This document shows, piece after piece, positions 4-31,450 of a DNA stretch of 41,983 nucleotides. The position numbers and the translations under genes are program-made. This DNA comes from an uncultured Gammaproteobacteria bacterium. Its GTDB lineage: Bacteria; Patescibacteriota; Patescibacteriia; Magasanikbacterales; GWA2-37-8. The notes beneath the pieces are model-generated. The model made no database searches and was not told the origin of the DNA. It saw nothing but the letters and a program-made list of their open reading frames with translations. The stretch's first letter is position 1. Each line of letters begins with the position of its first letter. The stretch spans positions 1 to 41,983 of the forward strand of contig CAYUIA010000001.1 of NCBI GenBank assembly GCA_964444635.1, in the 5' to 3' direction.

Positions 4-3000
4 TTGTTTGGTCGTCATGCGGATGTAGATCAAGATTTGATAAAAGTTGATACAGGAGATGCGATATTACCCAAACTATCTTATAGAAGCAATTATTATA
101 ATAACAGAGGTTTGATTTTTATAGATGACAATCCTGATAGTAAGGCTTTTTTAGGAGCCCAATCTGCTAGCAGTTCGGCTAAAATTTTAGCTATGAGTGG
201 TAATAGAAATGAACTTTCCGGATTATATTTATATTCAGACACAGACGGATTTGGAACAACTTCCAGTATGCGTGGTTGGATGATGGCAAAAATAGAAGAA
301 AATTCAAACTTAGTTTTTGGTTTTAATAATAGTGATTCTGGGGATGGTAAAGATTTAACCAATGTTAGGGTGATGACTTTGGATGGTTTTAATCCCAATA
401 TGTATGTTTATGGCGGAGCTACTTTCAACACCAGTAGCGGTAATTTTGATTTTCGTGTTCAGGGAAATGCAGATACTCATAATTTGTTTGTTCAAGGTAG
501 TACAAACAATGTCGGTATTGGCACATCTACCCCCGGTTATAAATTAACCGTGCAGGGTGATGTAAATATTACCGGTAGTTATATGATGAACGGCATACCT
601 TTGACTGCGGTTGACCCGGGCACGGTAACCGGTCAAATGGCTTATTGGGACGGGGATTCTTGGACACCGACTAGTAATATTTTTGTTTCCAGTAGCGGGT
701 TTATCGGTATAGGCACCACTACTCCCAAAAATGCCCTGACTCTCATTGGCGGACTTTCTATTTGCAGTAGTACACCGGCCGAAACCGCTTATACTCTTTA
801 TAATCTCAACGGGCAGCTTTATTGGAACGGATCGCCGGTTATTGGCGGTAGTACTAGTACCTATATCCAAGATGCAGATGGAAATACCAAAGTGGAAACT
901 GAAGAAAATCCGGATGAAAATAAGATTAATTTTTATACTGCCGGAGTCCGCAGGATGATTATCACCGATGATGGCAGGGTTGGTATCGGCACTTCCACTC
1001 CAGGTTTAGCCGATCCGTTGGCTCATTATCTGGTGGATGTTGAGATGACTTCCAATACCATTTCCGGTATTCGTTTGGCAAATCTGTCTGCCGGCAATAA
1101 TGCCAGTACGGAAATTAATTTTTATAATGATTCTGATCAGGGCGGAACAGTATTTTTGGTCGGAAGTAATTTTGACGGTTTTCCAAATGCGGCCGGCGCT
1201 TTTGGTATGGCTGCTACCGCAGGAAATGATTTGGTGTTAGCGGCCTTGGGTGGAAATATCAGATTTGCCACATATAATCAATTGATAAACGGTAGTAGCT
1301 CTATTTATATTGTCGGTTCGGGTGCTAATGAAGGATTTATCGGAATAAACACTTCAACTCCGTTGGCTCCGTTGTCTATTTTTGGCAATGTGTTTATTGA
1401 AGGTGAAAATCGTTATCTCAATTTCGGTACTACCACGGGAGAGCTTGGTTATGGTTTTCGTGATAATAACGGTATCATGGAGCTTCGCAATATCAATAAT
1501 AATCATAATGTTTGGTCGGAAATAGTTATCAATGATGCGCTTATTGAGGGTAATGTTATTTATGTCAATGCAATAAGCGGTAAGGATAGTTTTGATGGCA
1601 GATCTATCGCCAGAGCCAAAAAAACTATTCAAAATGCTATTGATACGGCTGCTGTTTCTTCTTCACCTTCCAATCCGTATACGGTTTCTGTTTCTGCCGG
1701 GACTTTTACCGAAGATTTACAGATGAAAGATTTTGTAGTGGTTCGAGGGATGGGTTGTAATACTTACATTAAAGGAAAAGTCATTTTTGATATGACTTAT
1801 GGCAGTGTTTTATCTATGGTTGATCTGGAAAATACGGATGATTATGCTGTGGAAGTAAAAAGTGCCGGAAAATCTGTTTTGAAAAATGTAACCGTGGGTG
1901 CGAAATATACGGACGGTAGTAAAGATATCCAAGCCGTGGTTTATCAGGAAAACGGCACTTTGGAAAGTTTTACCGCCAATAAATACAATTTTACTCAAAC
2001 TACCAATACTGTTGGGACAAAAATAAATACGATTTTTTATCTAACCAGCTCCACCGTCGCCAGCGCTTATATATATAATCCGGAAATTTTTGTAAATACT
2101 TATGATAATGATGATGATTTGTCTGTGCTTTATTCTGAAAATCAAAGTTTCCGCAGCGTGGCAACAATGAAAGATCCGATTATTACGTTCCCGATTTATG
2201 CTTCCGCACCGACAAATATTGTCAAAATGTTTAATCATAACAATGCCAGATTTAACACTTATATTGATGCCGCTTTTGCAACGATTTTGACTGTGGCGCC
2301 GGGAACAGTCAAACTGATTCCGGCTTATGTAAATAGTTCTACGGTTTTATCCGGCGCGCAAATCACCAATTCTTCTTTTGCTTGGGCCGGACCCGGGATC
2401 AGTGAAAACAGTGTTTATCTTAGCTCCGCCAACACACCCAATGATCAAATAGTTTTAACTTCCAATCAATTTAAAACAAATACTGATATTTTTCCGGTGA
2501 GATATACTGCGGACGGAGCTTCCGGTACTTTGGAATATTTTATCAGTAATGGTTTTGGAGATTTACAAAATAGCTCATTTGCTACATATAAAGGTAGTTT
2601 TGGTATTGGTACTTCCACCCCATATGATCTTTTGGAAATTTGGGGTGTTGATCTAAGTACCGGTCCGACCAGCTCAAGAAATTATATAACCATAGTTGCC
2701 AATGGCAATGGTGAAGCTGGTAATTATATACGTCGCGTAAATAGCGGTATTTATGATAATGGCTGGTCCTGGTATATGCCGGTGAGTAGCACTGATTTTC
2801 GTCTCTGGGATGATTCAATAGGGGCGGAAGGAGATGATATGCTGACTTTCCAAGCGGGAACCGGTAATGTCGGTATCGGGATAGCGCTTTACGATCCTCT
2901 CAACAAGCTACATATTGACGGTGGGTTATATCTTGGAGATACAGCTACAGCCACTACCACCAACTCGCTTTATAATGTCAGCGGAGATCTGTTTTGGAAC

Positions 3001-6000
3001 GGAAATCTTTTGGCCAGCGCCGGAGGAGCCACCGCCAATTGGCTGTTGACTTCACATAATGGAGGAAATGTTTTAAGCACTTCTACCACTATCCCGGTTT
3101 GGTTCAAGGATATTATTTATGCCAGCTCTTCGGTTTACATTGACGGCACATTAAATGTTTTGGGAGCGGTAAATATGCCAACCACGACAATTACCGAATT
3201 GACGGTTAATAATATCAATGTTTTGGGTACGGTCAGTACCACGGATATGTTAGTGGCAAATAATATCACATTGGGCGGGGTAACTCGCAACACTTGGCCG
3301 ACCGGTGGCGGAGGAGATAGCGTATGGACAACAACTACTGCCAATGTTGCTTATCCTGATTTAGACGGTGATTATGCTATAGTGATCGGAAATAGTGTTA
3401 CCAGCAGTAATGTAAAATTTGAAGTAGCGGGCCATACTAAGTTGGGAGGTAATTTGTCAATTACCGGATCTGGTAATGTCGCAGGTACATCAACTTTGTC
3501 CGGCCCGGTTTTGTTCGGGGACTATGTACAATTTACCACTGCGGGAAATAATAATTTTTATTTTAATAACAACACAAACAATTATTTGCGATGGAATAAT
3601 TCTGCCACACAATTTGAATTATCAAACGGAATATCTGTAACCGGTGCGGCTTCTACTACCGGTAATATGTATGCCGGAGGTGGTTTTGACACAAATGATA
3701 CTTATCGGATTGGCGGAGTTGATTATGGCCAATATTTTATTGATTCGGCCGGGACGGTAGGACAACTATGGTCATCTGACTCCAGTGGTCGCGGTCAATG
3801 GATAAACACTTCATCTCTTGGTTTGGCTCAAGGCATTGCCGGTGCGATTCAGTTTAGCAATGGTAGCGGGGTTTTTGATGCTACATCAAGTTTGTTTTGG
3901 GATAGTGCAAATAGTAGATTGGGTATTGGCACTACTACGCCAGGAGCTCCGTTGCATATTGTAACCAATAATACTGGTCCGGCAATGACAATTTTACAAA
4001 AAACTATTGCTGGAGCTACAAACTTGAATTTTGTAACCCAAAATAATAAATATTGGCAACTTTCCAAAAGAGACGATAATCAAGATGATAAATTTATATT
4101 TTATTTTGTAAATGACGCCGGTTTATTTACCAATATTTTGACACTTGGATCAACCGGAACTATCGGCATTAATAATGAAAACCCGGAAGCCATGCTTGGT
4201 ATAAAAGGAACTTCCACTTATCCTTTGTTTTATGTACAGACCAGCTCTTCGCAACCGTCAATTTATTCTGCTGAAAATGGATATGTAGGTATTGGTACCA
4301 AATCACCAACAAGCTTATTAACAATCAGCGGAACCACGACAGCCAGAAATATCATACCGGCCAACGGTTCTTATAATTTGGGTAATTTTGATCATAACTG
4401 GTTACGTTTATGGGCAAAAACTATAAATATTAATAATCAAAATTCTATAGGAGCTATTGAATCTACGGGTAGTTATGGTCCGACCTCAACAAATATAAAC
4501 GGAGCTTTGGCAATTACTGATCCGGACAATCCCAATAGGACCGGTAGATATATGGACACTTATAATATTGCTACTTTATTTCCAGGGATTCCAAATGGTT
4601 CAAATATGACGGTTTCTATAACCTCGGGAAATTTTGATACTTATTTGCAAATAACATCCGACACCGGATCAGTAACTTATTTTGATGATGACGGAGGCAC
4701 AGGAACAAACTCTTATTTAGAGTTTATTTATGATGCCAGCTCTACTTATAATATCGTTGTAACTAGCTGGGGGGCTGGTGAAACAGGTGATTATAGTCTG
4801 GAAGTAACAGCAGTTAATTCTCCTGTTGATGCTGGATTAGCAATATATAATGCCATTAATGGCGGAGGAGATAATTTGTTTACTATTTTAAACGGAGGAA
4901 CAGTTGGTATAGGCACATCAACACCGTCTCATTTACTTACCTTATCCTCAAACAACGAAGGAGTGCTTTTGATAACCAACAGTTCCACGGGATATATATT
5001 ACTGGAAGGTAAATATTTATCGCAAAATTTTGGGATGAGTTTGGAAACAGGAGCTTTGATTGCAAAAAATTCTTATTTTGGCGAAGAATTTATGCGCGGT
5101 AGAGGAAATGTGACTGCAGATACTTTGTATGCTTGGGGTGATTTTCAACAATTCACAGTTGATGAAAATACGGCTTGTACTTGGAGTTCAGTGGCAAACG
5201 GAGTAAACGGTATCGGCAGACAGCAAGCGGCAAATGGCGCCAACTCTTGTTTGGCATATCATGGGATTACAACTGCCGGAACCGCCAATCTTGTCTTTAA
5301 TACCGCCAATTTACCTGTCATAACTTTCAAAGCTTCTCCGTCCGCTGTTACTGCCAATATCCGATTTAGAATTGGTTTGAGTAATCTGTCTCAAGCTCAA
5401 ACTGCAGACCCTCTAAACGGTGTTTATTTTACCAATAACACCACCAACGGAGAGTGGCAGGGTGTTTCGCGTCGCGCCGGAGCTTCCACTGTTGTTGATT
5501 GTGCGGGACAAGCTATCAACACTGCTGTATTTGGGGTGGCAAAAATAGAAGTAGTTTCCAGTAATGGTGACGGGACGGGAGAGATAAATTTTTATATTGA
5601 TAACGATGCAACTGACGGAGTGGATTGGTTTTATTGCGGTCAAGCAACGACCAATATTCCGACTGTCGGATTGACTTCTATGATTATGAATAACACCGTA
5701 GCCGGAGGCGGGGCGCAACAGATTGATATTGATTATTATCGCGTATGGCAAGATGATTCGGCGGAAACAGTTATTGAAGAAATTGTGGAAGAAATTCCGG
5801 AATATATTGAGAAAAATATTTTTGGTATGGCGCAAATAAAAGCGGGCGACAGTTTGGTACAAGTGGATTTTGACGGTGAATATGCCGTACCGCCGATGAT
5901 GGGTGTTACCCCTCTTGGTTTTGACGGACGATGGAAATTACAAAATGTGACGACTCGCGGATTTGAAATCTCGCTTGTTGAGCAGGCAATAGATAACGTG

Positions 6001-6324
6001 TTATTCAATTGGCAAGCCTATGTGGTGGAGGATGATACGAAAATACACAGTTCTGACGGTAGTATACAACTATTAAAAGATTTTTATTTGGACTTTAATC
6101 CGTTGATAAATATCCCGCAAAGCGGAAGTAGTGGTGAATCTACTCCGGCTATGCCGTCAGGGACATCAACACCTCCGGTAGAAGAAACGCCTCCGGTGGA
6201 AACTCCGACAGAACCTGTGATAGAGACACCGCCGGTAGAAGAACCGGCACCAGCTCCGGAAGAACCGCCGGTTGAAGATCCTGTAGATCCAGTTGAAACG
6301 CCGGTAGATGTTCCTGTGGAATAA
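4..6324 (+). CDS. Giant secreted/surface fibre-like repeat protein. The ORF is open to the window edge, so it is probably 5'-partial (>=2106 aa).
   Basis: Uninterrupted 6.3 kb ORF with no signal peptide at the window edge. About 10 copies of the motif G-[IV]-G-[TI]-x-[TS]-P-x(3-5)-L-x-[VLI]-x-G (VGIGTSTPGYKLTVQG, IGIGTTTPKNALTLIG, VGIGTKSPTSLLTISG and others), as seen in tail-fibre-like proteins. Two LYN..G.L[YF]WNG motifs. A beta-helix-like start (GRSIARAKKTIQNAIDTA...VSVSAGTFTEDL), a PPC-like module (...GDYSLEVTAV) and an H-type-lectin-like module (VQVDFDGEYAVPP...TTRGFEISL...FNWQAYV). The last ~65 aa form a P/E/T/V-rich tail. Confidence 0.85.
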   Translation: MFGRHADVDQDLIKVDTGDAILPKLSYRSNYYNNRGLIFIDDNPDSKAFLGAQSASSSAKILAMSGNRNELSGLYLYSDTDGFGTTSSMRGWMMAKIEENSNLVFGFNNSDSGDGKDLTNVRVMTLDGFNPNMYVYGGATFNTSSGNFDFRVQGNADTHNLFVQGSTNNVGIGTSTPGYKLTVQGDVNITGSYMMNGIPLTAVDPGTVTGQMAYWDGDSWTPTSNIFVSSSGFIGIGTTTPKNALTLIGGLSICSSTPAETAYTLYNLNGQLYWNGSPVIGGSTSTYIQDADGNTKVETEENPDENKINFYTAGVRRMIITDDGRVGIGTSTPGLADPLAHYLVDVEMTSNTISGIRLANLSAGNNASTEINFYNDSDQGGTVFLVGSNFDGFPNAAGAFGMAATAGNDLVLAALGGNIRFATYNQLINGSSSIYIVGSGANEGFIGINTSTPLAPLSIFGNVFIEGENRYLNFGTTTGELGYGFRDNNGIMELRNINNNHNVWSEIVINDALIEGNVIYVNAISGKDSFDGRSIARAKKTIQNAIDTAAVSSSPSNPYTVSVSAGTFTEDLQMKDFVVVRGMGCNTYIKGKVIFDMTYGSVLSMVDLENTDDYAVEVKSAGKSVLKNVTVGAKYTDGSKDIQAVVYQENGTLESFTANKYNFTQTTNTVGTKINTIFYLTSSTVASAYIYNPEIFVNTYDNDDDLSVLYSENQSFRSVATMKDPIITFPIYASAPTNIVKMFNHNNARFNTYIDAAFATILTVAPGTVKLIPAYVNSSTVLSGAQITNSSFAWAGPGISENSVYLSSANTPNDQIVLTSNQFKTNTDIFPVRYTADGASGTLEYFISNGFGDLQNSSFATYKGSFGIGTSTPYDLLEIWGVDLSTGPTSSRNYITIVANGNGEAGNYIRRVNSGIYDNGWSWYMPVSSTDFRLWDDSIGAEGDDMLTFQAGTGNVGIGIALYDPLNKLHIDGGLYLGDTATATTTNSLYNVSGDLFWNGNLLASAGGATANWLLTSHNGGNVLSTSTTIPVWFKDIIYASSSVYIDGTLNVLGAVNMPTTTITELTVNNINVLGTVSTTDMLVANNITLGGVTRNTWPTGGGGDSVWTTTTANVAYPDLDGDYAIVIGNSVTSSNVKFEVAGHTKLGGNLSITGSGNVAGTSTLSGPVLFGDYVQFTTAGNNNFYFNNNTNNYLRWNNSATQFELSNGISVTGAASTTGNMYAGGGFDTNDTYRIGGVDYGQYFIDSAGTVGQLWSSDSSGRGQWINTSSLGLAQGIAGAIQFSNGSGVFDATSSLFWDSANSRLGIGTTTPGAPLHIVTNNTGPAMTILQKTIAGATNLNFVTQNNKYWQLSKRDDNQDDKFIFYFVNDAGLFTNILTLGSTGTIGINNENPEAMLGIKGTSTYPLFYVQTSSSQPSIYSAENGYVGIGTKSPTSLLTISGTTTARNIIPANGSYNLGNFDHNWLRLWAKTININNQNSIGAIESTGSYGPTSTNINGALAITDPDNPNRTGRYMDTYNIATLFPGIPNGSNMTVSITSGNFDTYLQITSDTGSVTYFDDDGGTGTNSYLEFIYDASSTYNIVVTSWGAGETGDYSLEVTAVNSPVDAGLAIYNAINGGGDNLFTILNGGTVGIGTSTPSHLLTLSSNNEGVLLITNSSTGYILLEGKYLSQNFGMSLETGALIAKNSYFGEEFMRGRGNVTADTLYAWGDFQQFTVDENTACTWSSVANGVNGIGRQQAANGANSCLAYHGITTAGTANLVFNTANLPVITFKASPSAVTANIRFRIGLSNLSQAQTADPLNGVYFTNNTTNGEWQGVSRRAGASTVVDCAGQAINTAVFGVAKIEVVSSNGDGTGEINFYIDNDATDGVDWFYCGQATTNIPTVGLTSMIMNNTVAGGGAQQIDIDYYRVWQDDSAETVIEEIVEEIPEYIEKNIFGMAQIKAGDSLVQVDFDGEYAVPPMMGVTPLGFDGRWKLQNVTTRGFEISLVEQAIDNVLFNWQAYVVEDDTKIHSSDGSIQLLKDFYLDFNPLINIPQSGSSGESTPAMPSGTSTPPVEETPPVETPTEPVIETPPVEEPAPAPEEPPVEDPVDPVETPVDVPVE

Positions 6325-6713: not shown

Positions 6714-7520
6714 TTAAATAGGATCACCAGATTTTCTCTTAATAATATCTATCTTCGGGCCTTTCCATCCTTTGGTTTTGAGTGCTATTTCTGCAGCTTC
6801 TGTTTGAGCCTCTTGTTTGCTGGTGCCGTTTCCTTCGGCCACCAATTCTTTGTCCAGATAAACTCCGACTTTGAAATTTTTGGCATGATCCGGACCTTCT
6901 TCACTGATAACTTTGTAAGTCGGCGTTACTCCAACCAGCTCCTGAGCGCTTTCTTGGAACCTGCTTTTAGGGTCCAAATATAAGCCATTTTCTAAAATAT
7001 AGGGTAATTTTGGCAATACCCAGGTTTGTAAAAATTTAGTAGTAGCTTCATATCCTTGATCTAGATAAATCGCCCCGACCAGCGCTTCAAACAAATTGGC
7101 CATGATATAATCGCGAGCTTTGGTGCCGGCGTCTTTGGATTCGCCGTGACTCAAAAAGAGAAATGGTTCAGTGCCTATCTCATAGGCGATAGAGGAGAGG
7201 ATTTTGGCGTTTACCAAAGCTGCGCGCCAATTGGTTAGCTCGCCCTCGGGGTTACCGTATTCATTGAAAAGATGTTCGGTTACAATGAGTTCAACCACCG
7301 CATCACCCAAAAACTCCAGTCGTTCATTGTGAGAAAGAGGAAAATCATGATGTTCGTTGAGATAAGAACGATGGACAAACGCTTGAACTAGATATTCAAA
7401 ATTTTTGAATTTAATACCGATTTTTTCTTCCAGAATTTCAAAATTACGCTCTTTGATTTCCGGTAAATTGCGTAAATCCTTTTTTATTTTATTTTTTGAA
7501 ATTGTTTTTTTTATCGGCAT
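6714..7520 (-). CDS. rnc: Ribonuclease III
   Basis: RNase III signature ERLEFLGDAVVELIVTEHLF, a catalytic-domain acidic residue (LFEALVGAIYLD) and a C-terminal dsRBD (DPKSRFQE...GPDHAKNFKV...GNGTSKQEAQTEAA). Confidence 0.93.
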   Translation of the reverse strand: MPIKKTISKNKIKKDLRNLPEIKERNFEILEEKIGIKFKNFEYLVQAFVHRSYLNEHHDFPLSHNERLEFLGDAVVELIVTEHLFNEYGNPEGELTNWRAALVNAKILSSIAYEIGTEPFLFLSHGESKDAGTKARDYIMANLFEALVGAIYLDQGYEATTKFLQTWVLPKLPYILENGLYLDPKSRFQESAQELVGVTPTYKVISEEGPDHAKNFKVGVYLDKELVAEGNGTSKQEAQTEAAEIALKTKGWKGPKIDIIKRKSGDPI

Positions 7521-7525
7521 ATATT

Positions 7526-8104
7526 TTATCTTTCAACATCGGGTGTTTCGTAGTCATCTTCGTTATTATTTGTATTTTTTTCAACTTCAGTTTCATTCTC
7601 GGTAATTTCCTCTGTATTTTCTTCAACTTCTTCGCTTTCTTCTATTTTATCTTTCTTTTTAGTTTTTTCCTCTAAAGCGATTTTTTCATCTTCGGGAATA
7701 TCCTTGTAGATAGAACCCAAAACTCCGTTGACAAATTTGCCTGAAGCAGGACCACCATAACTCTTAGCCAATTCTATAGCCTCATTGATGGCTACTTTTG
7801 GTGGAACTTCTTGAGCTATCTTGAGCTCATATATTCCCAAACGTAAAACATTGCGATCCACATTGGTAATCTGCTCTATAGGCCAACTTGGAGCGTATTT
7901 GGTAATAACCTCGTCAATGGCGGGTATGTTTTCAATAACACCGTTAACCAAAGAAAGAGTAAAATCTTTTTCGTTCAATCCCGCGCCAAATTCCAGCAAG
8001 TCATGTTCAACAATAGAACCGAGTTCTTGTAAATTTTTACCGCGAAAGTCCCATTCAAAAAGGACTTGCAGCGCTATACTGCGCGCCAAATGGCGATTGG
8101 ACAT
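7526..8104 (-). CDS. nusB: Transcription antitermination factor NusB with an acidic ~55 aa C-terminal extension
   Basis: [28 protein letters not shown] and [13 protein letters not shown] are typical of NusB. The tail is E/N/T-rich and low-complexity. Confidence 0.88.
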
Positions 8105-8401: not shown

Positions 8402-8463
8402 CTCGTGCTAAGCGCGAGAGTAGCCCCGCTCAGCGGGGCCGGTGATTAGCATAACTATGCTAA
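8402..8463. repeat. Three tandem 7-bp-stem hairpins in a divergent intergenic region
   Basis: ctcgtgc-taa-gcgcgag (8402-8418), gccccgc-tca-gcggggc (8423-8439) and ttagcat-aact-atgctaa (8446-8463). Confidence 0.6.
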
Positions 8464-8533
8464 ATTAAAGCAAAAAGATTTATTGTTGTATTGAAAAATT
8501 ATTTTAGCTATTATATACTCAAGATATTGAAAT

Positions 8534-9565
8534 ATGACACTAGAGATTAGAAAAAATACAAACAAAGAAGAATGGGACGATTTTTTATCTCAATTTTCCG
8601 ATTTTAATCCTTTTCCCCAGAGTTTTGCCTGGGGTGATGTTTTGATTACCGAAGGCAAGGAAGTGGAAAAATTGGCCATATTTGATGGAGGCGAGCAAAT
8701 AGCGGCTGTTTTGATTGTTTATGAAAAACTACCATTTGGCTGGAAATACGCATTTAGCCCAAAAGGCCCGGTGATTGGTATAAAGTATCAAGAATCCAGT
8801 ATTAAGTATGGAGAGGTCGTCTCTATAATTAGTGAGTATTTAAAAGACAAAGGATGTGTATTTTGGAGGTTGGAACCCAATGTTAATCTGCAATCTGAAA
8901 TCAAAAATCTAAAATTGGCAAAGGTTAAGGACATAAACCCCTCAAACACTTTATTGTTAGATTTGAATAAGAACTATGAAGAACTACTCTTTGCCATGCA
9001 CCCCAAAACCAGGTATAATATTGGCTTGAGTAAAAAGAAAGATCTGCGCATAGAAGAAAGAAAAGATTTGGAAATTTTTTGGGATTTGATGCAAAAAACA
9101 GGGGAGCGAGACGCTTTTCGTTTGCATCACAAAAAACATTATGAAGAAGTTTTGAATTCAGATCTAACTTCGCAAGTAATAGTGTATTTTGAAAATAAGC
9201 CAATTGCCACCGGGGTTTTTATAGGCTTTGGTCAAACATTTACCTATTTATACGGTGCTTCTGATTATGAATATCGCCAAGCAATGGCGCCTTATCTGAT
9301 ACAGGATTTTGGGATAAACAAAGCCAAAAATAAAGGGTTTAAAAAATATGATTTTTTTGGCATTGCTCCGTTAAACAAGGATGAGACAGGAGAGGTAATT
9401 TATGATGAAAAACATCAATATGCCGGTGTGACGAGATTTAAACTTGGTTTTGGTGGGGGATGCATCGCTTTCCCAGGAACATACGAAATTGTAATAAATA
9501 AAGTTTCATATCTATTTTTAAGTTTGATGAAAAAAATTCGGAAAATATTGAATATTAAATATTGA
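8534..9565 (+). CDS. FemAB-family peptidoglycan interpeptide-bridge peptidyltransferase-like protein
   Basis: 343 aa. The FemAB-like central block MHPKTRYNIGLSKKKDLRIEE...FWDLMQKTGERDAFRLHHKKHYEEVL and the C-terminal GVTRFKLGFGG resemble the PF02388 family. Confidence 0.75.
   Translation: MTLEIRKNTNKEEWDDFLSQFSDFNPFPQSFAWGDVLITEGKEVEKLAIFDGGEQIAAVLIVYEKLPFGWKYAFSPKGPVIGIKYQESSIKYGEVVSIISEYLKDKGCVFWRLEPNVNLQSEIKNLKLAKVKDINPSNTLLLDLNKNYEELLFAMHPKTRYNIGLSKKKDLRIEERKDLEIFWDLMQKTGERDAFRLHHKKHYEEVLNSDLTSQVIVYFENKPIATGVFIGFGQTFTYLYGASDYEYRQAMAPYLIQDFGINKAKNKGFKKYDFFGIAPLNKDETGEVIYDEKHQYAGVTRFKLGFGGGCIAFPGTYEIVINKVSYLFLSLMKKIRKILNIKY
8777..8811 (+). repeat. 35-nt, five-heptad (GTATNNN) element in frame inside the femAB-like CDS
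   Basis: ggtataaagtatcaagaatccagtattaagtatgg encodes GIKYQESSIKYG. It is 32/35 identical to 36590-36624 (reverse complement), and by that comparison also related to the intergenic copy at 38714-38748. Confidence 0.8.
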
Positions 9566-22615: not shown

Positions 22616-22764
22616 TGCTAGTCAAAAGAACCAGCCCAGACGTGACAGTGTCATGGTACCACTCTTTGGAGAAACGACAATTTAGAAAAAGTGAAAAATA
22701 CGGGTGGAACCGTCCTAAATTTTTAAGGACCCCGATACCTCTGTTTTTGAGGTGTCGGTTTTTT
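22616..22764 (+). promoter_or_regulatory. T-box riboswitch leader (Thr specifier) controlling thrS
   Basis: T-box motif AAUACGGGUGGAACCGUCC. It folds as the canonical antiterminator GGG-[UGGAACC bulge]-GUCCU-loop-AGGAC-CCC. A terminator follows immediately: CCGAUACCUC-uguuuuu-GAGGUGUCGG plus U6. The specifier context GAGAA-ACG-AC at 22669-22678 matches the GAA-codon-A pattern, and ACG codes for Thr. Confidence 0.75.
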
Positions 22765-26157: not shown

Positions 26158-27555
26158 ATGGCTAAATACTATCACATCATCACTTTTGGCTGTCAAATGA
26201 ATAAAAACGACTCAGAGCGCGCTGGGGCGCTTTTGGCGTCTCTTGGTATGAAAGAAACGCCGGTATTGGAAAAGGCGGATGTGGTGTTGGTAAATACCTG
26301 TAGCGTGCGTCAAATGGCCGAAGACAGGACCAGCGGGATAAACAGGAAGATTTTGAAATTGAAAAAACAAAAACCAAGTTTGATTTTTGCCGTAACCGGT
26401 TGTATGCCGGGGCGAGATACGGACGGACGATTGCGAAAAAAAATTCCCAGCGCGGATCTGTTTTTTCCGATCATTGATCTTCCTAAATTGCCGGTATGGT
26501 TGCGCGAACTTCAACCTGACTGGTTCAAACTGAAATTTGAAGATGTCGGACAGTATTGGAATATTGACCCAAAAAGAGAGCTTGATTACAAAGTTTTTAT
26601 CACTATTCAAATTGGTTGTAATAATTTTTGTTCGTATTGCGTAGTGCCTTATGCTCGGGGCAGAGAAAAAAACAGACCAGTGAAAGATATTTTGCAAGAA
26701 ATTAAAAAAGCGGTGAAAAAAGGCGCCAAAGAAATCACCTTGCTTGGGCAAGTAGTCAATAATTATCGCGCGCCTGACCCGGAAAATTATAAAAAAGAAA
26801 ATATATTTTCCCCCTCTGCCAGAGAGGGGGCGAAGGGGGAGAGGGAGAAAAACGATTTTGCGGCTTTGCTTTGGGAGATAAATAATATACCGGGCGATTT
26901 TCGTATTTTTTATACCGCTCCAGATCCACAACATTTTGATGATTATCAAGTTAAAGCGTTGAGTTTGCCCAAAATGGTGAACTATCTTCATTTGCCGGTG
27001 CAAGCGGGGGATAATGAAATACTCAAGAAAATGAATCGCAAATATACGCGCGAACAATTTATAAAATTAATCAAAAAAATTCGCGCGCAAAAACCCGAGA
27101 TTGCCATTGGTACGGATATTATTGTTGGTTTTTGCTCGGAAACTAAAAAACAATTTGAACAAACGGTTGATTTGTATAAACAATGTGATTTTGATATTGC
27201 GTATCTTGCTATGTACAGTCAGCGCAGTGGAACGGTAGCGGCGAAAATTTATAAAGATGATGTGGAAATTGCAGAGAAAAAACGTCGTTGGCGAGTATTA
27301 CAGGATTTGATGGAAGAAATAGTTTTGCGTAAAAACCAAAAATATTTAGGGCAAGTAGTGGAAGTATTGGTAGATGATTGTCAATCTCCCTCCTCTGCCC
27401 GAGAGGAGGGTGGGGTGGAGAGGGAGATTTGTACAGGGAATAGTAGTGAAATGAAAATGGTGCAGTTTTTGGGAAATAAAAAAATGATTGGGAAATTGAT
27501 AAAAGTGAAAATAAATTTTGCGGAGAAATGGATACTCAAGGGAGAAATAATTTAA
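26158..27555 (+). CDS. miaB: tRNA-i6A37 methylthiotransferase MiaB (radical SAM), carrying two in-frame repeat insertions
   Basis: UPF0004 N-terminal domain (YHIITFGCQMNKNDSE), radical-SAM motif CNNFCSYCVVPYARGRE and a C-terminal TRAM region. Confidence 0.93.
   Translation: MAKYYHIITFGCQMNKNDSERAGALLASLGMKETPVLEKADVVLVNTCSVRQMAEDRTSGINRKILKLKKQKPSLIFAVTGCMPGRDTDGRLRKKIPSADLFFPIIDLPKLPVWLRELQPDWFKLKFEDVGQYWNIDPKRELDYKVFITIQIGCNNFCSYCVVPYARGREKNRPVKDILQEIKKAVKKGAKEITLLGQVVNNYRAPDPENYKKENIFSPSAREGAKGEREKNDFAALLWEINNIPGDFRIFYTAPDPQHFDDYQVKALSLPKMVNYLHLPVQAGDNEILKKMNRKYTREQFIKLIKKIRAQKPEIAIGTDIIVGFCSETKKQFEQTVDLYKQCDFDIAYLAMYSQRSGTVAAKIYKDDVEIAEKKRRWRVLQDLMEEIVLRKNQKYLGQVVEVLVDDCQSPSSAREEGGVEREICTGNSSEMKMVQFLGNKKMIGKLIKVKINFAEKWILKGEII
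26809..26847 (+). repeat. GC-rich hairpin repeat in frame in miaB (copy 1, 39 nt, SPSAREGAKGERE)
   Basis: tccccctctgccagagagggggcgaagggggagagggag. Hairpin CCCCCTCT/AGAGGGGG. Exactly 13 codons. Confidence 0.8.
27385..27426 (+). repeat. GC-rich hairpin repeat in frame in miaB (copy 2, 42 nt, SPSSAREEGGVERE)
   Basis: tctccctcctctgcccgagaggagggtggggtggagagggag. Hairpin CCCTCCTCT/AGAGGAGGG. Exactly 14 codons. Confidence 0.8.
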
Positions 27556-27589
27556 TAGATTTAAGAGATTCAAGAAATTTAAAAGATTA

Positions 27590-27614
27590 AAACCCTGCTT
27601 TTGGCGGGGTTTTG
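27590..27614 (+). terminator. miaB terminator
   Basis: aaaaccctgc-tttt-ggcggggtttt. Confidence 0.65.
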
Positions 27615-27618
27615 GTAA

Positions 27619-27647
27619 TTGACTTTTTTGATTGTTTATGTTAGTTT
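27619..27647 (+). promoter_or_regulatory. Promoter of the 184-aa orphan gene
   Basis: TTGACT, 17 nt, TAGTTT. Confidence 0.5.
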
Positions 27648-27689
27648 AAAGGTAGATCTTTATCAATTTATATAAAAAGGAGAAGGAAA

Positions 27690-28244
27690 ATGAAAGCAAT
27701 CGTTGTTTTTTTTAGAGAGTATTTTGAAGGGAAAAGCATTGAAGACGAAGGATTTTATGAAGTTGTAGTCAAAAGCACATCGTTCAATTTTATTTGTAAT
27801 CTTGGTGATGATGGTATTATGAAATATCATAATGTAGAAAGAAAGATTCTGACAATCGGCTCTTTATTTCCAAGTGACGAAGCAAGGATAAAAAACCCGA
27901 ATCTTCATTTAGAATCCCTTTTGGAGGAAAACATCAAAAAAGAAGAGCCAGATGATTTTTTCATCATGGCTTGTGGTAAAAAGGAAATTGATGAAGAAAT
28001 ATGGAAACAGGTAAGTCGGTTTCCTGAAAACGCCACCATGCTTTATAAAACCGAAAAAGGTTTTGTAAAAGTTACAGGGATCAGGAAAAGTTATTTTGAA
28101 GGGGAAGAAGTTATTTTTCCTGAAAAAGAAGAAAAGATCAATTCTCCTAAACATGAGAAAGAAATTACAAAAGCAAAGATAGGGTTTCAGAAAATTTGCG
28201 AAAGCGCGCCAGAGATAATTGGTCCGCCAAAAAAGTTTATGTAA
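27690..28244 (+). CDS. Orphan 184-aa protein, member 1 of a tandem paralogue triplet
   Basis: SD AGGAG. N-terminus MKAIVVFF and motif FFIMACGKKEIDEEIWKQVSRF, similar to IVVVDKCGEKEFDAKIKDFISKH in the 28918 gene. The terminator is homologous to that of 28918. Confidence 0.7.
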   Translation: MKAIVVFFREYFEGKSIEDEGFYEVVVKSTSFNFICNLGDDGIMKYHNVERKILTIGSLFPSDEARIKNPNLHLESLLEENIKKEEPDDFFIMACGKKEIDEEIWKQVSRFPENATMLYKTEKGFVKVTGIRKSYFEGEEVIFPEKEEKINSPKHEKEITKAKIGFQKICESAPEIIGPPKKFM

Positions 28245-28270
28245 AGTTTATTTCAAAATAGATTTTACTT

Positions 28271-28295
28271 CCGCGGTTAAAACCCGCGGTTTTTT
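28271..28295 (+). terminator. Terminator CCGCGG-N7-CCGCGG plus T6
   Basis: ccgcggttaaaacccgcggtttttt. Near-identical architecture and flanks to 29290-29314. Confidence 0.8.
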
Positions 28296-28345
28296 ATTTA
28301 GAGGACTTGTCGGGCGTAGTCCGCTATCTGGCGGACGAAGACCGA

Positions 28346-28374
28346 TTGACAAAACTGGCTTTTTATGCTATATT
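28346..28374 (+). promoter_or_regulatory. Promoter of the 129-aa orphan gene
   Basis: TTGACA, 17 nt, TATATT. The promoter and leader share blocks (tttttatgctat, atagtacattaa) with the 30017 promoter region. Confidence 0.65.
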
Positions 28375-28424
28375 ATGATGTAATTTAAATAGTACATTAA
28401 TAATAAAAATAAAGGGAGGAGAAA

Positions 28425-28814
28425 ATGAAAAGGTTGATTTTAATCACCTTTTCCGATCCGACAAAAACCTGGTGTAGTTCGAAGTATCGTGACTATGTCG
28501 GCTATTTTTTGGAAAGGTTCAGAGAAAGGTTTGGGGTGAAAGAGGAAATTGAAATTGTCATCAGACATATTTCGCTTCCTCCAAATACCCAGCCCTCCAA
28601 AGTACTCGGAGATTATTTCCGAGACAGGAATTCTGAGGTTGTCGGTGTGGTTGTCCAAGCGCATGAATCTTTGGAAATAAACCAGAAAATTCTGTTTCTG
28701 GCAGAGATTATGCGAGAAGATAATCACCCGATAGAAATCATTTTTTTTGAAAACGGAAAAACATTTCTGTTGAAATCCGTTTTCAGAGGAAAAATAGAGG
28801 GTGAAGAGCTGTAA
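28425..28814 (+). CDS. Orphan 129-aa protein, member 2 of the triplet
   Basis: SD GGGAGGAG. N-terminus MKRLILITF...Y......FLERFRERFGV parallels MTKVIFITF...Y......FFEVLEGRFHL of member 3. Confidence 0.7.
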   Translation: MKRLILITFSDPTKTWCSSKYRDYVGYFLERFRERFGVKEEIEIVIRHISLPPNTQPSKVLGDYFRDRNSEVVGVVVQAHESLEINQKILFLAEIMREDNHPIEIIFFENGKTFLLKSVFRGKIEGEEL

Positions 28815-28845
28815 GCCCCGCGGATTTTGTCGGGGCTTTGTTTTT
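28814..28845 (+). terminator. Terminator of the 129-aa gene
   Basis: agccccg-cggattttgt-cggggct followed by ttgttttt. Confidence 0.7.
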
Positions 28846-28872
28846 GACAAAAATATTGCGAAGGAGTAAATT
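28844..28872 (+). promoter_or_regulatory. Promoter of the 120-aa orphan gene
   Basis: TTGACA, 17 nt, TAAATT. Confidence 0.55.
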
Positions 28873-28917
28873 AGTAGTCTGTTCTTTGAATAAAACTTTT
28901 TCAAACGGGGGTGACAA

Positions 28918-29280
28918 ATGACAAAAGTAATTTTTATCACTTTTGAGGTCGGAACCGAATGCTTTTGGAAAGAAGACAGATATCAAGCCGGAAGAAAAAA
29001 ATTCTTTGAAGTTTTGGAAGGTCGTTTTCATCTTTCAAATGTCAAAGAAAATTTTGAACCGGTTTTTGCCGTGAACCAACTTGGGCTTCCTAAATTAAAA
29101 AGCGGGGAGACCATACCCTTGGAAATGGCAGAAAAGATTCTTTCCGAATATGAAAAAAACGAGATAGTTGTAGTTGATAAATGCGGGGAAAAAGAATTTG
29201 ACGCAAAAATCAAAGACTTTATTTCCAAGCATAAAAATTTCTACGCCTTGGAGGAGGTGATAGAACATCATCACAACTAA
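28918..29280 (+). CDS. Orphan 120-aa protein, member 3 of the triplet
   Basis: SD GGGGGTGA 4 nt before the ATG. Motifs are shared with members 1 and 2 (see those entries). Confidence 0.7.
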   Translation: MTKVIFITFEVGTECFWKEDRYQAGRKKFFEVLEGRFHLSNVKENFEPVFAVNQLGLPKLKSGETIPLEMAEKILSEYEKNEIVVVDKCGEKEFDAKIKDFISKHKNFYALEEVIEHHHN

Positions 29281-29289
29281 ACAGTTAAT

Positions 29290-29314
29290 CCGCGGTACCA
29301 AACCGCGGTTTTTT
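29290..29314. terminator. Bidirectional terminator CCGCGG-N7-CCGCGG plus T6
   Basis: ccgcggtaccaaaccgcggtttttt. Overlaps the stop codon of the convergent lipoprotein gene. Confidence 0.8.
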
Positions 29315-29948
29315 ATTTCACCTCGGTAAATTTTACCGTTTTTTCAAACAATTCATTAGCCTCATCGGGTAATATAACCCCGGGGATAGAAGAAAATTTT
29401 TCTTTTTGCGGATTAAGATTAGTTAGTTCGGGAACAAAGTTTTTTTGAACTATCAAAACACCGTTTTCAGTTGGGAAATAATATTGATCATGGCCACACC
29501 CTTCAACTCCTTGTGTTAATCTATATCCTTCGCGGTCTCCGATTTTTGTTTTTTCCAAAAATCCGGTTTCTTCTTTTATAGTGCCGTCGGTATTCACAAA
29601 CTCTTTTAGATATTCTCCGCCAAATTTTGTCAGAGCTCTATCAAGCGATAGAGTAGTAAAAGAAAATTTGATAGTAAGGTCTTTGAAAGTAGTGGTTGGC
29701 AGAGAATCGCCCTTGAAATCACAAAAATCCGTATGAAGAAAAGTTTCTACCGTGTGAGAAAGAGTTACGGTCCCATTCTCGTCTTTTATTGCAAAGGGTT
29801 TCAAAAGGATTATTTTCAAATCCGCAGTTTCATAATATTGTTGTTCTATAACCCCCGGTAGCGGATAGGGTTTTTCAACTGTTAGTCTAAAACACCCGGC
29901 GATAAAAAATGCGGATAAAAGTAAAATGAAGAAAGATGCTTTTTTCAT
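29313..29948 (-). CDS. Putative lipoprotein
   Basis: Signal peptide with lipobox MKKASFFILLLSAFFIAGC. 211 aa. No SD. Confidence 0.7.
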   Translation of the reverse strand: MKKASFFILLLSAFFIAGCFRLTVEKPYPLPGVIEQQYYETADLKIILLKPFAIKDENGTVTLSHTVETFLHTDFCDFKGDSLPTTTFKDLTIKFSFTTLSLDRALTKFGGEYLKEFVNTDGTIKEETGFLEKTKIGDREGYRLTQGVEGCGHDQYYFPTENGVLIVQKNFVPELTNLNPQKEKFSSIPGVILPDEANELFEKTVKFTEVK

Positions 29949-30016
29949 AAGTTATTTGATAAATTAATTATAAATTTAGTATATTCTTTTGACGCTTTTT
30001 AATCAAGGATGCGTCG

Positions 30017-30045
30017 TTGACCAAAGTGTTTTTTTATGCTATTGT
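30017..30045 (+). promoter_or_regulatory. Promoter of the 126-aa orphan gene
   Basis: TTGACC, 17 nt, TATTGT. Homologous to the 28346 promoter and leader. Confidence 0.55.
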
Positions 30046-30079
30046 TTTGATAGTACATTAAACAACAGGGGGGTGATAA

Positions 30080-30460
30080 ATGCCGGAAAAAGGAAATAAA
30101 AAGTTCGCTGTTTTAGAGAGCAGAGTAAAAAGTCTCAAGGTAGATGACTTGTCGATAAAAGACCTAATTGCTTTATCGGACGAGTTAAATTTTAAAAACA
30201 GGATAGTTGCCGAAGAGATGTTGATTCGGAAAAACTGCGATGAGATAGCACTTCGTCATATATTGCGAAATGCTAGCAAAGAACCGCGCCAAGAAGCTGC
30301 TAAGCGTCTTTTGGAAAAGTATCCCACTCGGGATAATCTGGGGATGATTATTCGTTATTGTGAATATTATCGTCATAGAGCATTTGAAATGCTCAAAGAA
30401 AAAGAAGGGCAGGAAAACGCTCAGGCGATTTTTCTTAACAACATTTACAAAGACAGTTAA
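30080..30460 (+). CDS. Orphan 126-aa helical protein, paralogue of the 21901 gene
   Basis: SD GGGGGGTGA. Shares the CDEIAL-containing block with the 208-aa protein. Has its own terminator. Confidence 0.7.
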   Translation: MPEKGNKKFAVLESRVKSLKVDDLSIKDLIALSDELNFKNRIVAEEMLIRKNCDEIALRHILRNASKEPRQEAAKRLLEKYPTRDNLGMIIRYCEYYRHRAFEMLKEKEGQENAQAIFLNNIYKDS

Positions 30461-30466
30461 ATTATG

Positions 30467-30494
30467 CCGACCTTATGTAGAGGTCGGTTTTTTT
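30467..30494 (+). terminator. Terminator of the 126-aa gene
   Basis: ccgacct-tatgtag-aggtcgg followed by T7. Confidence 0.8.
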
Positions 30495-30520
30495 GACGAA
30501 AAAAATATAATTGGTATAAT
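30493..30520 (+). promoter_or_regulatory. miaA promoter placed only 9 nt from the ATG (near-leaderless)
   Basis: TTGACG, 16 nt, TATAAT, 9 nt, ATG. Confidence 0.55.
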
Positions 30521-30529
30521 GATAATATT

Positions 30530-31450
30530 ATGAAAAATAAACTTCCAAAATTAATCGTTGTTTGCGGTCCGACCGCCAGCGGTAAAACCGATTTGGCTAT
30601 TGTATTGGCCAAAAAATTTAACGGTGAAATAGTCAATGCCGATTCTCGACAAATTTATAAAGAAATGGATATTGCCACCGCCAAGCCGACTCTGGACTAC
30701 GGACTACAGACTCCCGACTACATTGTTGACGGGATAAATCATTATTTACTTGATATTATAAACCCGGATGAAAATTTTACACTCAGCGATTATAAAGATC
30801 AAGCTCAAAAAACAATTAAAGAAATTATCAAAAAAGGAAAAATTCCTTTTTTGGTCGGTGGAACCGGTCTTTATATCAAAGCGATTGTAGATAATCTGGA
30901 AATCCCGAGAGTTGAACCGGATTTGGTTTTGCGCAGAGAGTTAGAAAGTAAAAGTGCGGAGGAAAGGATCAAAATGCTCAAAGAAATTGATCCGGAAACT
31001 TATGAAAAAATAGATATACAAAATCCGCGCCGGGTTATTCGAGCGCTTGAAGTGGTGCTAAGTACCGGGGAATCGTTTTTGAAACAACAAAAAAAAGGCA
31101 AACCGCTTTACGATGTTTTACAGTTAGGAATAAAAGTTGATAAAGAAAATTTATATGAGCGAATAAATAAGCGTTGTGAAAAAATGATTGAAGCCGGTTT
31201 AGTTCAAGAGGCCAAAAGGTTGGCACAAAAATATTCTTGGGAGTTGCCCAGTATGAGCGGTATCGGTTATAGACAAATGCGCGATTATATCGAGGGTAAG
31301 ATGACTTTGGAGGAGGCGATAGAATGGCTCCAAACAGATACTCGACATTATGCCAAACGACAGATGACTTGGTTTAGGAAAGATGAAAGAATTCATTGGA
31401 TAGAAAACGAGAAACAAGCAGAAAAGAAAATAGACGAATTTTTGAAATAA
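30530..31450 (+). CDS. miaA: tRNA dimethylallyltransferase MiaA with a short in-frame repeat-derived insertion
   Basis: P-loop GPTASGKT, then IVNADSRQIYKEMDIATAKP, LVGGTGLY and the C-terminal RHYAKRQMTWFR. Confidence 0.94.
   Translation: MKNKLPKLIVVCGPTASGKTDLAIVLAKKFNGEIVNADSRQIYKEMDIATAKPTLDYGLQTPDYIVDGINHYLLDIINPDENFTLSDYKDQAQKTIKEIIKKGKIPFLVGGTGLYIKAIVDNLEIPRVEPDLVLRRELESKSAEERIKMLKEIDPETYEKIDIQNPRRVIRALEVVLSTGESFLKQQKKGKPLYDVLQLGIKVDKENLYERINKRCEKMIEAGLVQEAKRLAQKYSWELPSMSGIGYRQMRDYIEGKMTLEEAIEWLQTDTRHYAKRQMTWFRKDERIHWIENEKQAEKKIDEFLK
30692..30712 (-). repeat. tagtc-type heptad repeat inside miaA (opposite orientation)
   Basis: The reverse complement agtctgtagtccgtagtccag matches 19/21 nt of the intergenic agtctgtagtccgaagtccaa at 17515-17535. 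It encodes part of LDYGLQTPDY. Confidence 0.7.

Follow-up and report, generated by a model that had tools for sequence, protein, structure and literature searches.

The miaB-miaA Slot and Its Genes

The window, that is, the whole stretch of 41,983 nucleotides (42 kb) analyzed here, belongs to the core chromosome of a Magasanikbacteria-like (CPR/Patescibacteria) genome. Pfam scans identified the housekeeping genes thrS, miaB, miaA, gyrA, ftsH, rnc and nusB around a small gene array, among named genomes a Candidatus Magasanikbacteria MAG came closest, and the G+C content gave no sign of foreign origin. The array comprises three consecutive ORFs on the + strand, c1 (27690-28244, 184 aa), c2 (28425-28814, 129 aa) and c3 (28918-29280, 120 aa). 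They occupy a variable slot just upstream of miaA, with miaB on one side and a convergent gene on the other; miaB and miaA both serve in tRNA modification. The intrinsic terminator of miaB, detected by terminator scan (27586-27616, + strand; fold -18.1 kcal/mol, z -4.4), is the upstream boundary of the array, and the downstream boundary is an ORF on the - strand (29313-29948) encoding a putative lipoprotein of 211 aa, the N-terminus of which ends in ...FFIAGC. This lipoprotein gene is conserved in all related loci reaching far enough. An orphan gene, e126 (30017-30460, + strand), also varies among relatives; it shows no similarity to c1-c3, and its membership in their family was not supported. 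An Rfam scan of 27400-30600 returned nothing near the gathering score, and a literature search on CPR variable islands and Magasanikbacteria found nothing relevant.

The original prediction, made from the letters alone, described the three genes as diverged paralogous cassettes with homologous terminators, in which regulatory DNA had been retained while the proteins diverged quickly under diversifying pressure. The three ORFs, the N-termini and the motifs on which it was built are all present in the translations. The comparison of copy number across relatives that it proposed revealed a slot of varying content, with 1 to 7 small genes among related loci. The slot contains c1-c2-c3 in the window, c1-c2-c3-314-287 in the related locus L007, c2-c3 in L009 and L016, c2 alone in L008, 132-c2 in L032, and 70-131-68-148-210-128-146 in L014. 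The core member is c2, which was found in every related locus. Family membership of the 146-aa and 131-aa proteins of L014 was unsupported in similarity tests.

Promoters and Terminators

The promoter regions of c1, c2 and c3 are three different modules. The c1-type promoter and 5'UTR module (27619-27689, + strand) was assigned by consensus match only, with a putative -35 element TTGACT at 27619-27624, TGn-TAGTTT at 27639-27647 (the -10 matches 3/6) and a GGAG Shine-Dalgarno sequence at 27679-27682. Seven copies of this module were found in five genomes (78% mean column identity), some of which precede unrelated ORFs, and the window copy is 91.7% identical to positions 6830-6901 of L014. In the c2 promoter and 5'UTR (28346-28424, + strand; 11/12 with TG in the promoter scan), TTGACA is followed after 17 nt by TGC-TATATT and then by ATAGTACATTAA and GGGAGGAG. 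This module is 90-95% identical between genomes, while the c2 ORFs of the same genomes are 57-80% identical at DNA level, and a module related to it precedes e126 at 30017-30061. The c3 promoter and 5'UTR (28844-28917, + strand; 10/12 in the promoter scan) consist of TTGACA, 17 nt and TAAATT, and together with the c2 terminator are 93-96% conserved in the relatives that possess c3.

A hairpin with a T-run starts within ~30 nt of each of the three stop codons, as in an intrinsic terminator (-10.5 to -14.5 kcal/mol, z -2.6 to -4.3, for the hairpins at 28271, 28813 and 29290). Pattern and terminator scans with folding placed the c1 terminator at 28271-28299 (+ strand; CCGCGG-TTAAAAC-CCGCGG, then a T-tract) and the c3 terminator at 29290-29318 (+ strand; CCGCGG-TACCAAA-CCGCGG, then a T-tract), the tail of which overlaps the lipoprotein stop codon on the opposite strand. 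The c2 terminator (28813-28845, + strand) has a GCCCCG/CGGGGC stem and folds at -14.5 kcal/mol. Judged from these predicted promoters and transcript boundaries, c1, c2 and c3 would be autonomous units.

The near identity of the c1 and c3 terminators was recovered, since they are 26/30 identical in register, fold at -10.5 and -12.5 kcal/mol, and are the only two occurrences of CCGCGG-N7-CCGCGGTTTTTTATTT in the window (28271 and 29290, vs. 0 expected). The homology read into this likeness did not hold. The likeness is confined to the palindromic 6-bp stem and the T-tract, with dissimilar flanks, and the same hairpin form recurs on 119 or more unrelated metagenome contigs of 35-71% G+C; within this clade the form is locus-specific, and the window has no excess of CCGCGG itself (8 sites vs. 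5 expected). Two distant loci, L014 and L032, have the c1 terminator with 29/29 identity, in L014 after a different gene, and at the c3-terminator position in relatives the stem is kept and the loop differs. Furthermore, the true paralogs c2 and c3 carry different terminators. Most simply, the c1 and c3 terminators are two cases of a common hairpin form and no relic of cassette duplication. With different promoter modules and a different stem in the c2 terminator, retention of regulatory DNA among the three genes of the window is contradicted. The idea that a CCGCGG within the c2 terminator is a third hairpin copy was rejected, because this terminator is conserved in six genomes as GCCCCGCGATTTTGTCGGGGC and the CCGCGG arises from a 1-nt insertion found in the window alone.

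Small same-strand ORFs with a hairpin inverted repeat after each, variable content and a fixed chromosomal site are also features of integron cassette arrays, and the slot might be read as a set of integron-like mobile cassettes with the CCGCGG hairpins as recombination sites, or as a toxin-antitoxin module. Conservation of an identical hairpin (100%) after different genes in distant genomes would agree with the former, and c2 and c3 are usually adjacent. However, the 19-nt hairpins are short GC stems followed by T-tracts, which are canonical intrinsic terminators and not attC sites, a promoter-like site stands in front of every unit, and the order thrS-miaB-[slot]-lipoprotein-miaA is fixed across all relatives compared. 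A Pfam scan of 26 window proteins detected neither an integrase nor a recombinase domain. As for a toxin-antitoxin module, c2 and c3 have a terminator and a promoter between them, L008 lacks c3 and L032 apparently does too, and no toxin-antitoxin family was matched. This explanation is very improbable.

Relationships Among c1, c2 and c3

Sequence and profile comparisons firmly support c2 and c3 as true paralogs, c3 having a shortened C-terminus. The two proteins, 27% identical, matched in BLASTP at E 2e-4 with 30% identity over 87 aa, and their Smith-Waterman score (z 5.3) was reached by 0/1000 shuffles. The c2 HMM gave 13.2 bits for c3, with 0/3000 shuffles as high, and the c2 profile matched c3 at E 4e-6 to 2e-8. 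The early block named in the original prediction is part of this similarity, as FLERFRERFGV and FFEVLEGRFHL pair up in every c2-c3 alignment. The alike N-termini are also present, but they amount to an M-K-x-hydrophobic start of low information that corresponds to the first beta-strand. Each of the three proteins has its own orthologues in related genomes, at 57-99% identity for c1, 38-78% for c2 and 70-96% for c3.

The position of c1 is less direct. No similarity was found in direct comparison of c1 with c2. The central motif predicted to be shared by c1 and c3 does match (BLASTP E 0.057, hhalign E 0.035-0.05, shuffle p ~0.03), but alone it is not above chance, and c1 alone against c2/c3 (shuffle p ~0.01-0.03) is not significant without bridging sequences. 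Such bridges are provided by compact 132-aa proteins in L032 and L019, which are c1-type (profile E 1e-24) and match the c2+c3 profile at E 1.2e-5 (0/3000 shuffles), with z 7-8 when the N-terminal halves were used alone. In hhalign, the c1 profile enriched with bridging relatives (A7/A6 comparison) matched the c2+c3 profile with 82% probability and E 1.1e-5 over 83 collinear columns, all family profiles being shallow (Neff ~1.5-2.6). The two halves gave separate collinear signals in the c1 vs. c2/c3 profile test (E 2.5e-4 and E 5.6e-3). In addition, each predicted secondary-structure element of c1 falls on its c2 counterpart in the sequence alignment, the c1 model itself having a pLDDT of 41. 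Profile alignment thus joined c2 with c3, and it joined c1 to them only through the enriched profile. Duplication with divergence, as originally predicted, is supported for c2 and c3, and c1 is probably a more diverged member of the family, a distant paralog of c2 and c3 linked by its bridging relatives, that carries a C-terminal extension and extra residues inserted between b2 and a2.

The alternative is that only c2 and c3 are related, while c1 is an unrelated orphan with generic alpha/beta patterns and the 132-aa and 210-aa bridges are chimeras of a c2-like N-terminal half and a c1-like C-terminal half. The direct c1 tests, at noise level or about 10-fold above it, agree with this, as do the L014 orthologue of c1 (148 aa), for which the c2+c3 profile gave no signal (p 0.68), and the BLASTP match of the bridge to the window c1, which covers only the C-terminal 70 residues. 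Recombination with breakpoints at ORF edges is also documented at the locus, and the N-terminal half of the window c1 matches the L014 210-aa protein only at p ~0.02. However, the L014 210-aa protein aligns over its full length with both c1 (E 1.7e-17, 143 aa) and the bridge (E 2.6e-12, 133 aa), and the C-terminal halves give an independent collinear b3-a3 signal (E 5.6e-3, p 0.011). Moreover, c1, c2 and c3 are mutually top or near-top non-self matches among the 272 ORFs of the window, and a half-domain chimera of unrelated folds would be unlikely to fold. An unrelated c1 is a minor but real possibility.

Fold and Family Searches

The AF2 model of c2 (pLDDT 77, pTM 0.75) predicts a Rossmann-like protein with the element order b1-a1-b2-a2-b3-a3-b4-b5, and the model of c1, which is poor (pLDDT 41), has the same order. 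Searching PDB and BFVD with the c2 model in Foldseek returned weak generic Rossmann-like matches (TM 0.44-0.50, E >= 4.5e-3), the best in PDB being hAgo2 MID and the CARF domains of Card1 and Can2. The c2 model shares with the Argonaute MID and CARF Rossmann domains a three-layer a/b arrangement and the b-a-b-a-b-a topology, but the matches have E 4.5e-3 or worse, TM 0.44-0.50, 7-11% identity and no sequence relationship. PDB sequence profiles gave only noise for the family.

No family was found for c1-c3 in Pfam or NCBIfam, and the PADLOC and PHROG models matched none of the three. An exhaustive HMMER search of 1.84 billion representatives with the c2 profile obtained 3 clusters, so that just one new member (P0019) was added to the profile and no link to other families appeared. 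The family is carried by 3 of 185,579 GTDB species genomes. As to location, the hydrophobic stretch at the N-termini of c1-c3 is only 6-7 residues long and gives way to charged residues, and no lipobox is visible. A surface role, one of those originally suggested, is unlikely, because the sequences show neither a signal peptide nor a membrane segment, and the hydrophobic start of c2 models as the buried strand b1. The proteins may be non-enzymatic accessory proteins that bind a ligand or a partner.

Selection and Recombination

Pairwise dN/dS (NG86) was calculated among orthologues (3-9 sequences). The values were 0.18-0.34 for c1, mostly 0.10-0.30 for c2 with one pair at 0.49, and 0.07-0.18 for c3, compared with 0.05-0.24 for flanking genes. 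The three genes are under ordinary purifying selection, which points to a modest family expansion rather than a fast-evolving surface or immunity system.

Comparison of the window with L007 revealed an abrupt change at c2. The two are 100% identical over 27541-28200 and 98-97% identical to 28380, fall to 73-83% within the c2 ORF (28441-28800), and return to 97% at the c2 terminator. Between the same genomes dS is 0.00 for c1, 0.98 for c2 and 0.16 for c3, and 0.15-0.39 for neighbouring genes. Similarly, e126 is 65% identical to its L007 copy, with a dS of 2.0. ORF alleles are thus far more diverged than the promoter and terminator flanks, and as the divergence is mostly synonymous, it indicates old alleles and not accelerated amino-acid change. 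The predicted contrast between regulatory DNA and protein, although absent within the window, is echoed in this difference between alleles and flanks and also in L014, where two c1-type paralogs with 38% protein identity have a common 97-nt upstream module at 94%. The locus is clearly recombining, and the bridging proteins described above might be recombinant chimeras.

The interpretation originally offered, in which genes for immunity, interaction or surface functions diverge fast at protein level under diversifying selection and keep their regulatory DNA, has these same observations in its favour, namely presence/absence polymorphism between related genomes, alleles of c2 and e126 much more diverged than their surroundings, and the well-conserved upstream module of the diverged L014 paralogs; the pattern would also fit long-lived alleles under balancing selection. 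The slot resembles the orphan immunity-gene arrays of polymorphic toxin systems (CDI, Rhs, T6SS) in its tandem small cytoplasmic proteins, presence/absence variation, divergent alleles and lack of an enzymatic motif. It differs from them in that its genes are predicted to be monocistronic with terminators between them, that no toxin gene or remnant lies nearby and that omega is well below 1, at 0.07-0.34 except for the single pair, as in the flanking lipoprotein gene. The mostly synonymous divergence and the cytoplasmic appearance of the proteins also speak against it. In addition, c1-c3 matched no Imm, toxin, toxin-antitoxin or defence family, no toxin, integrase, recombinase or phage gene was found in the window by the Pfam scan, and no relatives were found on the viral contigs of IMG/VR scanned with both profiles. 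We consider diversifying selection of this kind quite unlikely.

Discussion

The explanation we favour, with a probability of about 0.6, is that the slot holds three autonomous genes of one lineage-restricted Rossmann-like family, which are tandem-duplicated, old and under purifying selection. Each gene would be monocistronic, transcribed from its own sigma-70-like promoter to an intrinsic terminator and preceded by a strong Shine-Dalgarno sequence, and would encode a small cytoplasmic alpha/beta protein. The family would have grown by tandem duplication, and the copies would be old, as related genomes contain separate orthologues of every one of them. Genomes would then diverge by gain or loss of whole units, and homologous recombination may replace an ORF allele between conserved promoter and terminator flanks.

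Expansion of lineage-specific protein families by tandem duplication is a general phenomenon in CPR/Patescibacteria. The c1-c3 family resembles such families in being small, unannotated and limited to a narrow clade, with side-by-side copies under purifying selection. It differs from them in that complete promoter-ORF-terminator units are involved, the flanks are conserved above the ORFs, and ORF alleles are swapped.

Beyond the favoured explanation, a more speculative reading, which we regard as unlikely, would make the slot an "expression-slot array". Here the conserved modules would act as portable homology arms for integrase-free swapping, addition and deletion of ORFs, the divergent c2 and e126 alleles would be under balancing selection, and the products would be accessory proteins of an episymbiotic CPR bacterium with roles in immunity, anti-defence or host interaction.

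Two cautions follow for the reading of similar loci. Look-alike terminators of neighbouring genes may be convergent cases of a generic hairpin, and diversifying selection does not follow from low identity between paralogs. The duplicated genes add a small, previously unannotated Rossmann-like family to the pool of CPR-specific proteins, and the slot shows cleanly how, in a reduced genome, ORF alleles are replaced between regulatory flanks that stay conserved. If the slot were a site where recombination drives the exchange of accessory genes, it would be relevant to the question of how variable functions are maintained in episymbionts with tiny genomes.

Gene Organization Between miaB and miaA

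Three small plus-strand ORFs, c1 (27690-28244, 184 aa), c2 (28425-28814, 129 aa) and c3 (28918-29280, 120 aa), were found exactly where the original prediction had placed them. The array is flanked by miaB (26158-27555; Radical_SAM, UPF0004 and TRAM domains) and by a convergent minus-strand gene for a putative lipoprotein of 211 aa (29313-29948), beyond which a 126-aa orphan gene, e126, lies ahead of miaA (30530-31450; IPPT domain). Housekeeping genes (rnc, nusB, femAB-like, gyrA, S1, ftsH, PilB-type ATPase and thrS) fill the rest of the window, domain scans of the window proteins found no integrase, toxin or phage domains, and G+C content across the locus is not unusual. A 2106-aa ORF (4-6324) that matches no Pfam family at an E-value of 0.001 or below begins 3 nt from the left end and may in fact start beyond it. 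Among named genomes, a Candidatus Magasanikbacteria MAG is nearest, its ThrRS being 92% identical to that of the window, which places the window in a CPR/Patescibacteria bacterium. The related locus L008 (CAYWMO010000040.1) has the same thrS-miaB-c2-lipoprotein-miaA synteny, with proteins 85-90% identical to those of the window; this contig, titled 'uncultured Gammaproteobacteria bacterium', probably belongs to CPR and has been mis-binned or mislabelled.

Because each of c1-c3 has a promoter-like site and a strong Shine-Dalgarno sequence on its 5' side and a hairpin with a T-tract on its 3' side, 'mini-gene cassettes' is a fair description of these units, which we infer to be transcribed. The promoter-like sites are a conserved TTGACT-N17-TAGTTT module for c1, TTGACA-17-TGC-TATATT for c2 and TTGACA-17-TAAATT for c3, and the three hairpins have folding energies of -10.5, -14.5 and -12.5 kcal/mol, respectively.

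An in-frame, palindromic, G+C-rich element of about 44 nt (core CCyCCTCTGCCmGAGAGGrGG) occurs twice in miaB (26805-26848 and 27384-27427, 77% identical), these being the only copies in the window (0 expected), and adds the peptides SPSAREGAKGERE and SPSSAREEGGVERE to MiaB. L008 is without both insertions and another related locus, L032, without at least the second; at the first copy, identity to the related locus L007 drops to 53-73%. The elements are reminiscent of RPE-type events, in which small palindromic repeats insert into coding regions.

Paralogy of c2 and c3, Probable for c1

The three genes had been described as a diverged paralogous triplet, which is right for c2 and c3. The two proteins matched in BLASTP (E 2e-4, 30% identity over 87 aa) and in Smith-Waterman alignment (z 5.3, 0/1000 shuffles), and hhalign of their orthologue families (76%, E 2.2e-5, 85 columns) spanned both of the blocks quoted in the original prediction. 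With the c2 HMM, E-values for c3 proteins were 4e-6 to 2e-8 in a single comparison (0/3000 shuffles), and the invariant positions of a joint alignment are sensible. At the distant locus L014, a 131-aa protein (7166-7561) has the segment FKPVFAFNSL, 7 of whose 10 residues match the near-invariant c3 segment FEPVFAVNQL; with E 1e-3 against the c3 profile when compared singly, this protein is possibly a further, very diverged relative.

For c1 the relationship is only probable, and it comes through proteins of relatives. Direct tests found no similarity between c1 and c2, and the 'central motif' proposed for c1 and c3 gave a borderline match (E 0.035-0.057, shuffle p ~0.03). In L014, a 148-aa c1 orthologue adjoins a 210-aa paralog (E 1e-17), and L032 and L019 each encode a compact 132-aa c1-type protein (E 1e-24 to the c1 profile). 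The N-terminal half of these 132-aa proteins is c2-like (z 7-8, 0/2000 shuffles); that they could be recombinant chimeras is the main caveat to membership of c1. A c1-type profile enriched with sequences from related genomes aligned with the c2+c3 profile over 83 collinear columns (82%, E 1.1e-5), and each half was also collinear separately (E 2.5e-4 and E 5.6e-3). When all 272 window ORFs with 50 aa or more were ranked, the top non-member match of the c2+c3 profile was c1, and the c1-type profile ranked c3 first and c2 third. We put the probability that c1 is a diverged member of the c2/c3 family at about three in four.

The AF2 model of c2 (pLDDT 77, pTM 0.75) has the order b1-a1-b2-a2-b3-a3-b4-b5. 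The model of c1, of low quality (pLDDT 41), predicts the same order, to which it adds one helix as well as a third strand and a further helix at the C-terminus; the hhalign alignment sets every c1 secondary-structure element on its c2 counterpart. Foldseek with the c2 model returned only weak, generic Rossmann-like matches (E at least 4.5e-3, TM 0.44-0.50), including hAgo2 MID, Card1/Can2 CARF and KaiC, and nothing from a viral library.

Terminators and Reused Regulatory Modules

The likeness between the c1 and c3 terminators, previously taken as homology, is real: theirs are the sole two copies of the hairpin pattern in the window, and in relatives' loci it is confined to equivalent positions, so in this clade it does not represent a genome-wide consensus. 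As an argument for cassette duplication, however, it is weak evidence, because CCGCGG is its own reverse complement and a single 6-mer thus sets both arms; the tail TTTTTTATTT also stands 3' of an unrelated terminator at 22732 and overlaps the convergent gene's stop codon at 29313-29315; similarity is absent outside stem and tail; at least 119 contigs with 35-71% G+C, from unrelated organisms, carry the same pattern, which specifies 21 bases; and the demonstrable paralogs c2 and c3 differ in their terminators. The CCGCGG of the c2 terminator was rejected as a further hairpin copy, since it arises from a 1-nt insertion that only the window shows.

The conservation of the c1-type terminator is unusual: all 29 positions, including those of the loop, are the same in L014 and L032, where the protein of the adjacent ORF is only 48-57% identical, and in L014 this terminator also serves after the unrelated 131-aa gene. 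The stretch that separates the c1 terminator from the c2 promoter (28300-28345) contains a G+C-rich inverted repeat, GTCCGC-TATCTG-GCGGAC, within GTCGGGCGTAGTCCGCTATCTGGCGGACGAAGACCG; different G+C-rich hairpins occupy this position in L019 (ACGCTGAGCGT) and L032 (GACGCTTAGCGTC).

Promoters are reused as well, the c1-type module standing 5' of an unrelated 70-aa gene in L014 and the e126 promoter resembling the c2-type module. The c2 (28346-28400) and e126 (30017-30061) promoters have in common TTGACmAAAsTG and a downstream ATAGTACATTAA box, which lies upstream of c2 in most related genomes (1-2 nt changed in L009 and L014); these common elements hint at co-regulation or a shared operator. In L014, two 94% identical copies of a 97-nt module made up of terminator tail, promoter and 5'UTR (7907-8003 and 8469-8565) lie 5' of the c1-type paralogs of 148 and 210 aa (proteins 38% identical), and a 44-nt terminator module occurs twice (7569-7612 and 8446-8489, 91% identity) after unrelated genes.

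Slot Content and Allele Exchange

The slot between miaB and the lipoprotein gene is variable: it holds c1-c2-c3 in the window, c1-c2-c3-314-287 in L007, c2-c3 in L009 and L016, c2 alone in L008, 132-c2 in L032, 132-c2-c3 in L019 and 70-131-68-148-210-128-146 in L014. Window and L007 are 100% identical over 27541-28200 (c1 promoter and nearly the whole c1 ORF) and 98-97% identical over the c1 terminator and c2 promoter to 28380; identity is 87% at the c2 start (28381-28440) and 73-83% inside the c2 ORF, recovering to 97% at the terminator of c2. The corresponding dS values are 0.00 for c1, 0.98 for c2, 0.16 for c3, 0.39 for miaB and 2.0 for e126, the c2 and e126 alleles both being unusually divergent. 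Across the compared genomes, the 80-nt c2 promoter/5'UTR is 90-95% identical in 7 of 8 (67% in L014), whereas c2 ORF DNA is 56-80% identical, which argues that old, divergent ORF alleles have been swapped between conserved regulatory flanks. The flanks are conserved either by selection or through homogenisation by recombination. An arrangement in which the conserved regulatory modules provide homology arms, so that cassettes are exchanged without an integrase while under balancing selection, seems unlikely.

Selection and Family Range

Orthologues from as many as eight genomes gave pairwise dN/dS values of 0.18-0.34 for c1, 0.07-0.18 for c3 and mostly 0.10-0.30 for c2, where a single pair reached 0.49, compared with 0.05-0.14 for thrS, miaB and miaA and 0.15-0.24 for the lipoprotein gene. 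c1-c3 are thus real genes under purifying selection, and the diversifying pressure that had been proposed has no gene-wide support, all values being well under 1. Nor is a surface or immunity function supported: no export signal is visible in c1-c3, and neither a PADLOC match nor a toxin domain was seen.

Word-indexed searches gave just 5-7 clusters for each of c1-c3, exhaustive HMMER of the c2 profile against 1.84 billion representatives gave 3 clusters, and c2 is present in 3 of 185,579 GTDB species genomes. No relatives of c1-c3 were found in Pfam, NCBIfam, PADLOC, PHROG or PDB sequences, nor of the family in viral contigs. The family has no conserved catalytic motif, and we infer a non-enzymatic binding role. 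c1-c3 form a lineage-restricted orphan family that has undergone tandem expansion in a chromosomal slot of variable content in a CPR genome. Lineage-restricted tandem family expansion is an already known kind of phenomenon; what is particular here is the tidy modular regulatory layout together with ORF-level allele exchange.
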